From the sequence record CP128686.1: a stretch of DNA of 64,000 nucleotides. One strand, written 5' to 3'. Positions 1-9,000 of this stretch are shown in pieces (the stretch's first letter is position 1; each line of letters starts with the position of its first letter). Source of the stretch: a plasmid. Position numbers: made by a program.

Positions 1-3000
1 GTGTGCTGCTATCTAAAATAATGAGGTAAACGTAATGATTAAACTAACAAACACGCTTGGTATGCAAAAGGAGCTATTAGTTCCGGTTGAAGAGAGCAAA
101 TCGGCATGTATGTATGCGGCGTGACGGTTTATGACCTTTGCCATCTGGGGCACGCCAGAACCTTTGTCGCTTTTGATATGATTGTCCGCTATCTGCGTTT
201 TCGCGGATACGATGTGACTTTCGTGCGTAACATTACTGATATAGATGATAAAATTATTCAGCGCGCCCGTGATACGGGAGAGGACTGGCGCAGCCTGACA
301 GAACGGATGGTGCATGAAATGCACATTGATTTTGCAAAGTTAGGCATCCTGCCACCAGACATCGAACCTCGTCCCACAGAGCACATCCCACAAATCATCA
401 GTATGATCGAACGACTTCTGCATCGACAATTTGCTTACATTGCAGAGAATGGTGACGTCATGTTCTCCACTGCATCGGCAAAAGACTATGGAAAGCTTTC
501 GGGACAGGATATTACCATGCTTCGTGCCGGGACCCGCATCGAAGTGAATGAATATAAACGCGACCCGCTGGATTTTGTTCTCTGGAAGCGGGCAAAGCCC
601 GGCGAGCCCGTCTGGCCATCCCCCTGGGGCGAAGGGAGACCTGGCTGGCATATTGAATGTTCCGCCATGAACTGCCATTACCTTGGTACCCATTTCGACA
701 TTCATGGCGGTGGTTCGGACCTGATATTTCCCCATCATGAAAATGAGATTGCCCAGTCCACCTCCGCAAATGATGGCCCCTACGTAAATTACTGGCTTCA
801 CACCGGCATGGTGACGGTGAATAAAGAGAAGATGTCGAAATCGCTGAATAACTTTTTTACCCTGCGCGATATTCTGCACCGGTTCGATGCCCAGAGTGTG
901 CGCTTCTTCCTGCTAGGCGCACATTATCGCAAGCCGCTGAATTATAGCGAGGAAAATATTCACATTGCGCGCGCCTCGCTGACACGGCTCTACACCGCAT
1001 GCCAGTTCGCTGACGGGTCTCGATCTGAACAGCACGATGCATGGCGGGCCAGATTCTGTGAGGCAATGGATGATGATTTCAATACACCCTAGGCGCTTGC
1101 CATTTTATTTGAACTGACAAGAGAGATTAACAGGCTTTGCGGAATGAATGATGATGAAGCCGCAGCACTTGCCACCACGCTGAAATACCTGGGGAATGTG
1201 CTGGGTTTGCTTGAACAATCAGCAGATGCCTTTTTGAAAAACCGCAGTGATCTTCATCCTGCAGAACTGCAACTTATTGAAAGGTTAATTCACCAGCGCA
1301 GTAAGGCACGACGTATGGGCGAATGGGACAAGGCCGATCGTTTAAGGAATGAATTAGCGGAGCAAGGCATTGAACTTGAAGATGTCGGCGAAAATACCTC
1401 ATGGCGTTTCCGATAAGTTGTCCCTCTGGATGTAAGAAATTTCAACATCGATCGTTATGTTATAACGTAATGCAAAGGGTAATTTTATGAACCAACCACG
1501 CGAAGTCGTTATTGTCGGTGCGGGTCCGGCCGGGGTGGGTATGGCGGCGCTTCTTCGTCGGAGTGCTATACAGGATATCCTGGTCGTTGACAGTCACGAA
1601 GTAGGTGCCTCCTTTATGCGCTGGCCGGAAGAAACCCGTTTTATTACTCCTTCCTTTTTTTCCAATCCGTTTGGACAACCAGATCTGAATGCTATGACCC
1701 CTGACAGTTCATTGGCGCTTTTCTGCGGTGAAGAACATCCAGGGGGGAAAACTTATGCCAGTTACCTTAAGGTCGTACTGGATGAGTATCAGATACCCGT
1801 CATGGCTCCCGCCAGGATTGCAAAGGTTGCTTTGCTCAGTTCAGGTAATTTTATACTGACAACAGAAGCAGGAGAGAAGTTGGAAACACGCTCTTTAATA
1901 TGGGCTACAGGCGAATTCCAGTTCCCGGACCGGCTGATTTTTCCTGGGGCAGATATTTGTTGCCATTACGGTGATGTGACCAGTTGGAAGGATTTCAGGA
2001 AAGGTGAATACATTGTTATAGGCGGCTATGAAAGCGCAGTGGATGCCGCTGTAAACCTGCTGGAAAATGGCTCATCGGTAAAAATGTTAACCCGCTCAGC
2101 CCCTTGGTCAGCTAACCACATCAGCGATCCCAGTCTGTCGCTTTCCCCTTATACCCGTGAGCGTTTGAACAGGGTAATGAATCACCGTCTTTTCGAAATT
2201 TATGAAGATGCGGATGTCTGTGAAGTAATCAGAATGCCCGGACCGGGAAGTTCGTACAAAGTCCATACCACAAACGGACGCGCCTGGGCCACTGACGAGG
2301 TGCCTGTGCTTGCTACCGGCTTCCAGTGTGGCGGGGGAGCAAGGCAACTGGCTGCTTTTTTCGAATGGAATGATGATGGCTATCCGGTATTAACGGATGA
2401 AGACTGTTCAACCTTGTTTCCCGGTTTGTATCTTGTCGGCCCTCATGTGCGGCATGCCGGTAATATTTATTGCTTTATCTATAAGTTCCGCCAACGCTTT
2501 CCTGTCGTGGCAGAAAGTATCACCCGTCATCTGGGCCTGTCATCTGAAGGATTGCGTGACTGGTGGATTCTGCCTTCAGAACCCGACTGCTGTGCCGACG
2601 ATGACTGCGCATGCTGAGGTGGTGTTTATGCAATCATTCGTTTTAACAGGGTTAGAAAGTGCTGGAAAATCAACTCTTTTTAATTTCCTGACGGAAAGTG
2701 CAGCCAGTGATGAACGTAATTTCAGGGGATCCACCGTTGTATGTCGGGAGGGGGTCATTAAGGATGCGGATATCAACCTGGTTGATACCCCGGGTATACG
2801 CTTTCAGAGCGACAGTGAAACCACGAAACTCGCGCTCAATGCGCTAAACCAGCATGATGGTATTCTTCTGGTGTTGCGGGCCACAAACGCTCAGCAGGAG
2901 TGGCAAATGATCTGCAACCTCATACCATCACAGACAAAACGCCTCATTATCCTCCTGACCTTTGCTGATAAGGTTATAGAGGGGCTCGCGGAGGTGGCTG

Positions 3001-6000: not shown

Positions 6001-9000
6001 AAAAGGCCGGCGGGCACGAAATACAAAGCTGGTGATCCCATACTCTTCTGTCTCCGGCGTATGTTCACCCCGCAATTCTTTAAGCCAGCCAGGTGCCTGA
6101 GCGGCTTGATCGAAATCGAACAGTCCGGTATTAAGTACGTTATCAAGTGGAACCTTCCCAAACTGTGAAACAACGATCCTGGCCCGTGGATTAAGCGAAC
6201 GTAAAACCGCCATCAGTTTGTCTTTTTGCGCTTCACTGATGAGATCAACTTTATTGAGGACCAGCACATCGCAGAATTCAATCTGATCGATCAGCAGGTC
6301 TACAACGCTCCTTTCATCACCATCACCGAGCGACTCTCCACGCGACTGAATGCTGTCTTCCGAGCCGTAGTCTTTCAGAAAATTGAACGCATCCACCACG
6401 GTCACCATGGTATCAAGGCGCGCTACTGTTGACAGGCTTTCACCGTCATCACCGGCAAAGGTAAAAGTCTCAGCTACGGGCAGAGGCTCTGAAATCCCGG
6501 TGGACTCAATGACAAGCTGGTCAAAACGTCCTTCTTTTGCCAGACGATTGACTTCAAGCAGAAGATCTTCCCGCAATGTGCAGCAGATACAACCGTTACT
6601 CATTTCTACCAGTTTTTCATCCGTACGGGAGAGCTCTGCACCGCCATCCCTGACCAGCGCAGCATCAATATTCACTTCTGACATATCGTTCACAATAACG
6701 GCCACCCGTCGGCCTTCCCGGTTGTTCAGAATATGGTTAAGCAGTGTCGTTTTCCCTGCTCCCAAAAATCCCGAAAGTACGGTAACCGGCAGGCGTTTAT
6801 CGCCATGAAAATTTGCACTGACTTCAGACATTACCTTACATCTCCTCAGATATTCGTTGTGTTCGGATTAACCAGGATCGTTGAGCACGGTTAGCTCATC
6901 GCCTTTAATGGCGTTGTAAAAACAACTCCGCCGACCTGTGTGGCAGGCTCCACCTTTTTGATCCACTAGCAGTAGCACCGCATCTCCGTCACAATCCAGA
7001 CGGATATCATGTACTTGCTGAACGCAGCCGGAGGTCTCACCTTTTCGCCAAAGGCATGATCGGGATCGCGACCAGTAACAGGCTCTGCCAGTCAATAAGG
7101 TTTCATCAAGAGCCTGTTGATTCATCCAGGCAAGCATCAACACCTCTCCAGTGTCATATTGCTGTGCAATCGCAGCGATCAAACCATGAGAATCCCAGGG
7201 TATTGACGGCAGGATATCCTCAAGCTGAAACACTGCTCCTGCATGGGCTTTTTCCAGTAACAGAAACATTGGCACCCCACCTTTTTGATGTTACGTTATA
7301 ACATATCAAGCATAATTGCCAGTTATCACGATTTCACAGGCACTGTACTTCTTGGGTAACATCTGACCGGAAAAAGAAACAAAGCAAATGTGATAGAGGC
7401 AGCAGGAGGCAAGATGAATAACAAACTACATTCTGAATTGATTAAGAAAGCTATGTTCCCGGATCTAGGCTGTTCAGAATTTAGGGAACTGACTGCCCGT
7501 AAGGCGATGCGAATTACTCCGATGCGGATGATGGTGTATCACTTCATCAGGTGTGCTGAAGACAAAGGTATCAGTGCATACCAAATCCTTGACCAGTTAA
7601 AATCATATAACCCAAATGCAAAACCAACTACTGTTTATCGTACTCTGGATTATCTACAACAGGCTGGAGTCATTGTAAAAATAGAAAGCTGTAGCAAGTT
7701 TGTAAAAAAGAATAGCTTTCCCCATGAAGGATTAACACTTTTTATGATTTGTTCAAACTGCGGTACAATCATTCAGCATACAGACAGCAAAATACAATAT
7801 TACGTTGAGGATAAATCACATGAATATGGGTATATTATGCAAAGAAAGGACATAGAAATCAGTATAATTTGTCCCGGTTGTCAGGCTAATGAAAAAATGG
7901 CGCAATCTGGGTGAATTGTGCTCAATAAGCATACGATTAGTAACTTCCCATATTATATGTGAAACAGAAAAAATATTATTACGGTCGATAAAATTAAGAA
8001 TAATATAAATTAGCACTCCCACAAATATTGATTGAAATAATGCTGAATTATTTTCAATAAATAATACAAATAATGCAATTTGAAAAATACCTACCTATCA
8101 TGTTTAGCAAAGCATGACTATTTAGGATCATAAAAACAAAAAAGGAAATTTATAATTTATTTATTTTAACCGTTTTATTTGCACTCCATGTAAATGCATG
8201 CTTAAATTCCCATGCATTTCCTAAACAATATTACTAATGACCTTTATATACAATAATACAGAAATCCTAAATAACTGATCCTAATACCGCTACAGTTTAG
8301 CCAACCCATGTTTTCCACCGGGGAATGGGCTGACGGTATTCATAAAGTGACGAACCTTTTTCAACAGTTTCCACATTGAGTGGCACTGATGATTTCGGGT
8401 TATTGTCTCGTGAAGCGCCTGCCACAACCGTTCGACATGATTGACCCGCGGCGAGTAAACCGGCTGATAAATTACCCTGAACTTCGGGTTTGCTTTCAGC
8501 CAACGCAACGTTTCACGGCTTTTGTGGATGATGTGGTTATCGACAATGAGCGTAATCGTTTTTGCCCGCCGGTATGTCGCCTTCAGATGTTTTAAGTCTG
8601 ATAAATAAGGAAGAACCTTTACTGTTTCCACTAACGTAGCTGGCTTTTCCTGTATCGCTGTGCAGCGCACCGGCAAGATAGTACTTTTCATTCTGGCCCA
8701 GCGTGACTACGCGCTTTTGCTGCCCGCGCAGATGCCAGTCAGCACCAATTTTGGGATTGAGGTGAATATCCACTTCATCTTCGTAAAATACGGGGTTTTC
8801 CGCACTGCATTCGCCAGTGCTTCATGGATAGCGACCATTTTTTCTTCTTTGTGTGGGGCACGGATACGCAGTGTCGGCGCTGCTCTCCGCCATACCAGTC
8901 CGGCAGCAGGTAACCATCGCCGGATGGTTGAAGCATGTAGCGGACAACCGATAACATCACGGACTTTTATCGCCAGCAGTTCGGTGCTCCAGCGGGAACG

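Follow-up and report, generated by a model that had tools for sequence, protein, structure and literature searches.

What does a FeoB-like permease do beside a cysteine-rich flavoprotein, behind a Zur-type operator, on a virulence plasmid? The question is raised by a 64,000-nucleotide stretch of plasmid CP128686.1 (hereafter the window, by which we mean the whole stretch), in which the two proteins are encoded side by side at 1487–2617 and 2628–4277. The answer that we find somewhat probable is that the pair, repressed by Zur, imports zinc or some other thiophilic metal, most likely Zn2+. We read it as an importer because of the constant company of COG0523 and ZnuABC genes, the presence of three Zur-box dialects ahead of the pair, the induction of the Staphylococcus aureus homologues and the all-cysteine motifs found on both partners. 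Gene content, operator identity and conservation, the pairing itself and the cysteine motifs were established here by comparison.

Two partners with invariant cysteines

The first gene (1487–2617, plus strand) encodes a Pyr_redox_3-type FAD/NAD(P)H flavoprotein (PF13738, 314 bits), whose closest solved structure is that of an S. aureus protein (PDB 3D1C, E=5.8e-64). Its C terminus reads CCADDDCAC, a CCx3CxC tail that has its counterpart in the CCEVSCTC of S. aureus; such a Cys-rich tail (CCx2-3CxC) is present in 72/72 partner flavoproteins, each with at least three tail cysteines, the first one being absent in a minority. Cys329 in the core never varies, nor do Cys369, Cys374 and Cys376 in the tail; Cys368 is found in 85% of the sequences. 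An identity as thioredoxin reductase or as the bacillithiol-disulfide reductase YpdA was ruled out by the scores, which stay below the equivalog cut-offs (75.6 vs 339.9 bits for YpdA, 38.9 vs 343 for TrxR), and by the missing active-site CxxC: there is no CxxC in the NADPH domain, and Cys329 is the sole invariant core cysteine. Homologues with the same Cys tail were also seen in Enterococcus faecalis (P0198) and Streptococcus agalactiae (P0239). One GenBank annotation calls the window gene 'czcO'. The Bacillus subtilis flavoprotein CzcO (COG2072) is genetically paired with CzcD, a cation-diffusion facilitator for zinc, which gives a Pyr_redox_3-type likeness to the window pair; CzcD is an exporter, of a fold other than that of the FeoB-like permease.

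The second gene (2628–4277, plus strand; its true start is 2628, not 2397) encodes a 549 aa GTPase-permease, with an N-terminal FeoB-type G domain in which the G1, G3 and G4 motifs are present and a Gate-motif membrane domain. The best fold match of the G domain is NFeoB; fold searches with the permease returned G domains only and matched no solved FeoB membrane domain. Comparison with E. coli FeoB (773 aa) gave an hhalign probability of 98.9%, with an alignment reaching only residues 5–528 of the latter, while the protein fails the FeoB family scores (117.7 vs 315.65 bits for TIGR00437, 52 vs 683 for NF007105). Both proteins share the G domain, the Gate-motif membrane domain and the GFGCN motif. 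In contrast with E. coli FeoB, the window permease is about 220 residues shorter, lacks the helical domain insert and the C-terminal third, is paired with a flavoprotein under Zur-type control and carries an added, family-specific CxxCx4C cluster that is absent from the E. coli protein. Five cysteines are invariant in 56 sequences, namely C313 (GFGC), C342 (GSAC) and the C324, C327 and C332 of CxxCx4C. In an AlphaFold2 (AF2) model of the permease (predicted local distance difference test, pLDDT, 80.5) residues 301–355 form four short helices, suggestive of a pair of re-entrant hairpins tipped by C313 and C342, with the CxxC placed between the two on the entry side; this side would be cytoplasmic, since the preceding loop comes after the second membrane helix.

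A profile search of 1.84 billion representatives placed the permease in a distinct clade of about 100 clusters above 200 bits, canonical FeoBs beginning at about 150–180, with relatives of about 50% identity in Enterobacterales, Stutzerimonas, Paenibacillaceae, Bacillaceae, Verrucomicrobia, Chloroflexota and other phyla. The same search also returned permease variants of 365–450 aa that are devoid of a G domain. Directly 3' of the permease gene, an open reading frame (ORF) of 68 aa (4280–4486, plus strand) with a conserved CxxxxC has no Pfam or NCBIfam match; it is kept at this place in the gammaproteobacterial loci and in two verrucomicrobial loci.

The kinship with FeoB, attested by the hhalign result and the NFeoB fold match, also bears on a different proposal, in which what the pair takes up during zinc shortage is a substitute metal (Fe2+, Co2+ or Mn2+) for cambialistic or alternative enzymes such as a gamma-carbonic anhydrase, FolE2 or a dihydroorotase paralogue. 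FolE2, a carbonic anhydrase and a dihydroorotase are indeed encoded upstream of the window, an Fe-active gamma-carbonic anhydrase is discussed by Haas et al. 2009 (BMC Genomics 10:470), and relief of zinc starvation by cobalt is reported in the literature. However, the added all-cysteine cluster and the Cys4 tail of the partner suit Zn2+ at least as well, and the tightest neighbour of the pair is COG0523/ZigA, a zinc chaperone. Besides, a domain search found no FeoA or FeoC near the locus, and a scan for Fur (iron) boxes gave nothing above shuffles, although this was a weak test in which the E. coli feoA control also scored poorly. We consider import of a substitute metal unlikely.

Zur-type boxes in the window and at orthologous positions

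A repeated, near-palindromic operator had been noticed in a first-pass annotation of this DNA, and the repetition is real and far above chance. The 16-mer TTATGTTATAACGTAA occurs exactly at 1455–1470, with one mismatch at 7291–7306 (minus strand) and with two mismatches at 53688–53703, and further copies with three mismatches lie at 11434 and 57073; allowing up to three mismatches, there are 9 strand-matches against 0.38 expected, a number that 0/100 shuffles reached. The three copies first noticed stand where they had been placed, ahead of the flavoprotein/FeoB-like operon, of hisI-zigA and of a decayed unit with CobW and an ATP-binding cassette (ABC) importer, and two sites, at 11432 and 57071, are additional. 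When read as the 15-bp 7-1-7 box TGTTATAwTATAACA, the sites have 3 mismatches at 1453, 2 at 7289, 2 at 11432, 1 at 53686 and 3 at 57071. An alternative 16-bp palindrome register, TTAYGTTA/TAACRTAA, was rejected, since the canonical 7-1-7 Zur register accounts for the sites at least as well; it is the internal repeat GTTATGTTATAAC that gives the impression of a short palindrome, just as it does in E. coli ykgM.

The five sites were scored with a Zur weight matrix, built from only four validated E. coli K-12 operators. Box 1 (CGTTATGTTATAACG, 1453–1467), 20 bp ahead of the flavoprotein ATG, is a 7-1-7 match of 12.1 bits (matrix site at 1454). Box 2 (TGTTACGTTATAACA, 7289–7303), between hisI and a Fur-family gene, has 22.0 bits (matrix site at 7285) and is the published hisI2-yciC site. 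Box 3 (TGTTATGTTATAACA, 53686–53700; 18.0 bits, matrix site at 53682) precedes the CobW remnant and the ABC importer (54141–56950), while box 4 (TGTTATGTTATCACA, 11432–11446), the best of the window with 27.5 bits (matrix site 11428–11450), precedes an operon for a Nik/Cnt-like ABC importer and a major facilitator superfamily (MFS) transporter. Finally, box 5 (57071–57085; 17.6 bits, matrix site at 57067) lies ahead of hisI and CobW remnants. Shuffled sequences gave a mean of 1.0 site at 10 bits or more and a top score of 18.5; given that the matrix comes from four sites only, we take the scores as supportive and not as decisive.

Independently of the matrix, the validated ykgM/L31p Zur operator of E. 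coli K-12 MG1655 reads TACCTGTTATGTTATAACATAAC and has the TGTTATGTTATAACA core in common with the window sites; Zur repression is strongest for zinT and L31p, whose operators are also the ones bound most tightly (Gilston et al. 2014). The boxes lie 20–35 bp ahead of start codons and recur at the orthologous places of K. pneumoniae ATCC 13883, Kluyvera, Superficieibacter, Tatumella, Shimwellia, Erwinia, Pluralibacter and Stutzerimonas. A type-1 box, as we call this operator hereafter, is found about 35 bp before the flavoprotein gene in every gammaproteobacterial locus (86 bp in Stutzerimonas). The counterpart of box 1 sits at about -35 of that gene in loci L007–L011, L013, L014 (a perfect TGTTATATTATAACA) and L024, and that of box 2 is kept in L007–L010 and L012. 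In Pluralibacter a perfect TGTTATATTATAACA box precedes the pair with no other zinc genes nearby. The earlier identification of the repeats as Zur boxes is thus borne out by the common ykgM core and by orthologous conservation in at least five enterobacterial islands, and the comparison supports the view that the window operators are Zur boxes. Scans for sigma-70 promoters and for terminators around the boxes gave nothing useful.

Conservation of the pair with zinc genes and its S. aureus counterpart

We surveyed gene linkage at 80 species-level loci of the FeoB-like gene. The flavoprotein gene is adjacent and on the same strand in 67/80 loci, a COG0523 gene lies within 5 kb in 54/80, and any zinc marker (COG0523, Fur-family, ZnuA/B, FolE2, HisI, L33 or DksA2) within 10 kb in 66/80. 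Among the Firmicutes, 23/35 loci have a B. subtilis-type box (TCGTAATNATTACGA, up to two mismatches) within 200 bp upstream of the operon, against a background expectation of 0.013 per searched interval; in a further 11/35 the box is more distant (within 3.5 kb upstream), in most cases ahead of a COG0523 gene that runs in the same direction. At the S. aureus locus a perfect Zur box is located 51 bp upstream of the operon. At ten loci, a verrucomicrobial palindrome, TAATGCAA-N5-TTGCATTA, precedes the FeoB-like gene, COG0523 and hisI; it is probably the local Zur box. We observed that this palindrome resembles the second operator type of the island described below; it also resembles the Streptomyces Nur box. 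Membership of the flavoprotein/FeoB-like operon in the zinc (Zur) regulon, as first proposed from the window sequence, is therefore supported by the operators and by their conservation across gammaproteobacteria and Firmicutes.

The arrangement had been taken to be undescribed, which does not hold, as a supplement of Haas et al. 2009 and a Zur-box operon of S. aureus were already on record. In supplementary file 3 of Haas et al. 2009, one COG0523 subgroup (S. aureus SAOUHSC_02901) is noted to share its locus with ZnuA, 'TrxB' and 'FeoB'. Peng et al. 2017 found that calprotectin induces NWMN_2481 (COG0523) 43-fold, NWMN_2482 (hypothetical) 83-fold and NWMN_2483 (FAD oxidoreductase) 152-fold, and a 2026 paper in Nucleic Acids Research (NAR) places a Zur box upstream of the S. 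aureus 'GTPase, putative iron transporter, putative oxidoreductase' operon. In our set the S. aureus order is flavoprotein, a 446-aa Gate permease and COG0523. This operon (NWMN_2483-2482-2481, HG001_02621-02624; COG0523 ZigA/ZagA) has in common with the window a homologous flavoprotein with a CCx3CxC-type tail, a homologous permease (40% identity over 367 residues) in which CxxCx4C is kept, a Zur box directly upstream and linkage to COG0523. It differs in that COG0523 lies within the operon, whereas in the window it is convergent with the pair, and in that the permease has no GTPase domain and the operator is of another dialect. As the COG0523 gene comes directly after the permease without G domain, its GTPase may take over the gating there. 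By sequence comparison, the window operon is a G-domain-bearing, plasmid-borne new member of a known Zur-regulated module; the breadth of conservation of the pair and the cysteine motifs on both partners are new in this analysis and, like the additional Fur paralogues and their second operator, deserve further study. Literature searches on the pair and on its S. aureus and Klebsiella counterparts found no functional study. In Corynebacterium glutamicum, Cg0795, a possible member of the flavoprotein family, is a Zur-regulated oxidoreductase that adjoins COG0523 and is derepressed 45,500-fold.

Several of these features could also be accommodated if the pair were not a metal importer but a transmembrane thiol-redox or small-molecule system that would free or capture zinc, either by a DsbD/CcdA-like relay running from NAD(P)H to the flavoprotein tail, then to the permease cysteines and to the outside, or as a transporter whose ligand is a thiol or a zincophore. 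By kinship, the flavoprotein falls within the TrxR/YpdA disulfide-reductase superfamily (weak YpdA, TrxR and AhpF matches), and its one invariant core cysteine together with the Cys tail is reminiscent of C-terminal redox centres; in the permease, the invariant cysteines are at two predicted hairpin tips, and the Gate domain is also found in nucleoside transporters. The S. aureus operon moreover responds to sulfide and nitroxyl stress, but the sulfide response was put down to induced zinc limitation by the same authors (Peng et al. 2017). No periplasmic redox partner gene was found nearby in the 80 loci, and a FeoB-type GTPase gate is known only from ion importers, so that such a system appears improbable to us.

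Two additional Fur paralogues and a second operator

The gene next to box 2 (7414–7914, plus strand) encodes a divergent Zur-like Fur-family regulator, which we call FurB (NF008646 (Zur) 84.8 bits vs a cut-off of 167). As first noticed, its GC content is low, 35% vs about 50% in the neighbouring genes. FurB is 31% identical to E. coli Zur and has in common with it the Cys4 site (site A), Tyr45, Arg65 and Asp49, with Cys4, Tyr45 and Arg65 invariant in the family alignment; Tyr45 and Arg65 read the Zur-box purines in E. coli Zur (Gilston et al. 2014). In contrast to the latter, FurB stays under the Zur model cut-off, it is restricted to the island, and throughout its family all four site-B ligands (H77, C88, H96 and E111) are replaced, while it has a conserved Cys82 and Gln111-His112 of its own. 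Only 18 clusters of this family were found, all from Klebsiella or Enterobacter where the organism is named, and FurB evolves fast, with 55–59% identity between islands.

As FurB keeps Tyr45, Arg65 and Cys4 without the known sensing site, its sequence indicates that it could read the type-1 boxes; as the boxes are ordinary host-type Zur boxes, the host Zur alone would suffice. FurB rather than host Zur might even be the main regulator of these boxes, as was first proposed, and it is found only with this island, always adjoins the hisI box in the enterobacterial islands and keeps both the purine-reading residues and the structural Cys4 site. We nevertheless judge this doubtful: the type-1 boxes are indistinguishable from chromosomal Zur boxes such as that of E. 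coli ykgM, Pluralibacter and Stutzerimonas have the pair operon with such a box and no adjoining FurB-like gene, FurB is devoid of the site-B ligands, and its identity between islands is 55–59% where the neighbours have about 89%. The second operator of the island is, besides, tied to another Fur paralogue (FurA) and not to FurB.

This type-2 operator (TAATGCAATCAAGTTGCAATA, 59953–59973) is located between a CobW gene (58672–59964, minus strand) and a FurA-like ORF (60023–60409) of 128 aa without Pfam match. Its consensus, TAAYGCAAC-N3-GTTGCRTTA, stands directly upstream of FurA-type genes in 8/8 loci and also before the ThrRS-peptidase-dihydroorotase operon, with further occurrences at 1926–1977 and 7433–7453 of an IS-free reference plasmid (L001; IS, insertion sequence). 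FurA lacks Tyr45, which makes a different DNA specificity plausible. Between the plasmid and the chromosomal island copy of K. pneumoniae ATCC 13883, FurA is 99% identical and FurB only 55%.

The mobile island around the operon

Positions 1–8000 of the window are 100% identical to K. pneumoniae pLVPK/pK2044-type virulence plasmids (e.g. NC_005249.1, NC_006625.1) apart from the IS, and at least 494 plasmid records cover at least 80% of this query. The region is best explained as one piece of a zinc-starvation island that moves horizontally and is carried by the K. pneumoniae hypervirulence plasmid, and its reading as a zinc-limitation (Zur-type) regulon island is supported by gene content and by the conserved operators. 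Contrary to a first description as compact, about 8 kb more lie upstream of the window and a second block is found at 53–60 kb. The upstream part holds, in the same plasmids, a second Fur-family gene and genes for a CobW GTPase, DksA2, FolE2, carbonic anhydrase, a DUF1460 protein, a ThrRS paralogue, an M14 peptidase and dihydroorotase. The entire island is chromosomal, with its gene order kept, in K. pneumoniae ATCC 13883, Kluyvera, Superficieibacter, Tatumella and Shimwellia; in the ATCC 13883 type strain the copy lies at 3.02–3.05 Mb of the chromosome, and its FeoB-like protein is 89% identical.

The island and its Zur control are already known, having been predicted in 2009. The Zur-regulated COG0523/hisI/dksA2 cluster of pLVPK is listed by Haas et al. 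2009, whose supplementary file 5 gives the pLVPK sites hisI2-yciC (window 7285–7307, LV196) and dksA2-folE2-cam. Compared with the clusters of that study, of the P. aeruginosa PA5534-5541 and pLVPK types, the pLVPK cluster is the same plasmid cluster as that of the window; the families in common are COG0523, HisI, CysRS, ThrRS, DksA2, FolE2, carbonic anhydrase and PyrC paralogues, and the hisI2-yciC Zur site is identical. However, the table of Haas et al. 2009 has two pLVPK sites only, and the flavoprotein/FeoB-like operon, the sites 11432, 53686 and 57071, the two extra Fur paralogues and the second operator type are unmentioned in it.

The gene calls of the first-pass annotation held up within the window, with corrections that concern, beyond the FeoB-like start, the interruption of zigA, the status of cysS and the start of the Fur-family gene (7414). 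The cysteinyl-tRNA synthetase paralogue cysS (35–1416, plus strand; TIGR00435 478 bits over 106–1092, CysS_C at 1144–1416) is a pseudogene: in the annotation of the identical sequence by the Prokaryotic Genome Annotation Pipeline (PGAP) it is frameshifted and has an internal stop. The gene for the COG0523 zinc metallochaperone GTPase ZigA is split by an IS903-type (IS5 family) insertion at 4702–5757 (plus strand; NF033579 353 bits; 9-bp target duplication CCGGGCATC) into a 5' part (5758–6831, minus strand; NF038288 644 bits, cut-off 600), which spans positions 1–346 of the 390 of NF038288, and a severed 3' fragment (4546–4701, minus strand) recognised by comparison with the IS-free plasmid L001. 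Over positions 1–8000 this insertion, of 1057 bp, is the sole difference from the reference plasmids, and only some of the matching plasmids have it; zigA is intact in those that are free of it. Upstream of zigA lies a hisI paralogue for phosphoribosyl-AMP cyclohydrolase (6868–7269, minus strand; NF000768 171 bits), the hisI2 of Haas et al. 2009. In the second block, the region at 53.7 kb has a frameshifted CobW remnant followed by an ATPase/Peripla_BP_2/FecCD importer (PGAP) and, beyond, hisI and CobW remnants and an intact CobW gene. Considering the IS in zigA, the cysS pseudogene and the CobW/hisI remnants at 53.7–57.7 kb, the zinc genes of the plasmid are partly decaying.

Other neighbours were noted along the way. 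The operon behind the strongest box (11428–17713) encodes two ABC ATPases, an MFS transporter, a family-5 binding protein of NikA/Opp5A/CntA-like type and a fused permease, a layout reminiscent of the Cnt/Nik-type systems that combine import and export of metallophores. Immediately upstream, at 10506–11243, there is an M20 amidohydrolase fragment. At about 50.2–52.1 kb, a type I-E Cas6/CasE gene and a DEAD/DEAH helicase gene adjoin the second zinc block. From about 60.6 kb onward (12649–12909 of locus L002), a gene for a c-type lysozyme inhibitor comes after the CobW/FurA-like pair. The E. coli lysozyme inhibitor gene pliG is a Zur target, and the place of this gene by the zinc genes may thus not be accidental.

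A working model

When zinc is sufficient, Zn-loaded Zur would occupy the 7-1-7 boxes of the TGTTATrTTATAACA type; the repressor would be the host chromosomal Zur, possibly helped or modulated by the Zur-like protein of the island. The boxes would overlap the promoters of the flavoprotein/FeoB-like/68-aa ORF unit, of hisI-zigA, of the Nik/Cnt-like importer and of the FecCD-type importer, and these four kinds of unit would be derepressed when zinc runs short. The flavoprotein/FeoB-like pair may then act as a two-component membrane system, of a kind that would recur in the Zur regulons of several phyla. The FeoB-type G-protein-gated permease would bring a thiophilic divalent metal into the cytoplasm via a site made of GFGC, GSAC and CxxCx4C, and the cytoplasmic NAD(P)H flavoprotein would dock by its CCx3CxC tail and either keep the thiols reduced or take the metal from them. 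The C-terminal cysteines of MerA, which accept Hg from MerT, offer an analogy for such a tail. The reductive Zn/Fe(II) uptake route first suggested for the pair is conjectural. From there the metal could pass to COG0523 chaperones, e.g. ZigA, and on to the zinc-requiring paralogues HisI, ThrRS and CysRS. The transported substrate, the direction of transport and the role of the flavoprotein are what we infer in this scheme.

Several points weigh against import of zinc by the pair. The induction by zinc limitation comes from the S. aureus homologues, the Klebsiella genes being known from sequence alone; zinc is not redox active, which leaves the need for a flavoprotein unexplained; and the characterised relatives of FeoB carry Fe2+. 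The box ahead of the plasmid flavoprotein gene is the weakest of the set (3/15 mismatches, 12 bits), and only four E. coli sites went into the weight matrix. The cysteine loop of the permease has a pLDDT of 53–70, and its side of the membrane comes from secondary structure only. Finally, with zigA interrupted and cysS a pseudogene, some of the island is in decay, and selection on it may be weak.

Taken as a whole, a more specific and more tentative reading, to which we would give rather less than an even chance, is that the pair represents an uncharacterised family of Zur-controlled zinc (thiophilic-metal) importers, working by a cysteine relay between the CxxCx4C of the permease and the CCx3CxC of the flavoprotein. 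In this combined reading the family would derive from FeoB and extend across six phyla or more, with gating by GTP in most lineages and no G domain in staphylococci, streptococci and enterococci; the island would add a two-tier regulation, with a Zur-like protein that reads host-type boxes and senses via a different site, and a second Fur paralogue with its own operator.

The calprotectin-mediated withholding of zinc is a main host defence, and the plasmid on which the island resides is the one by which hypervirulent K. pneumoniae is defined. Should the pair import zinc, it would be a new transporter class beside ZnuABC, ZupT and the metallophore systems, and it would explain one of the most strongly zinc-regulated, unassigned operons of S. 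aureus and of many other bacteria. The conserved cysteine motifs are precise mutational targets, and the 3D1C structure makes biochemical tests straightforward. The Fur paralogues of the island, for their part, would exemplify a mobile element with its own metal-sensing layer above the host regulator.

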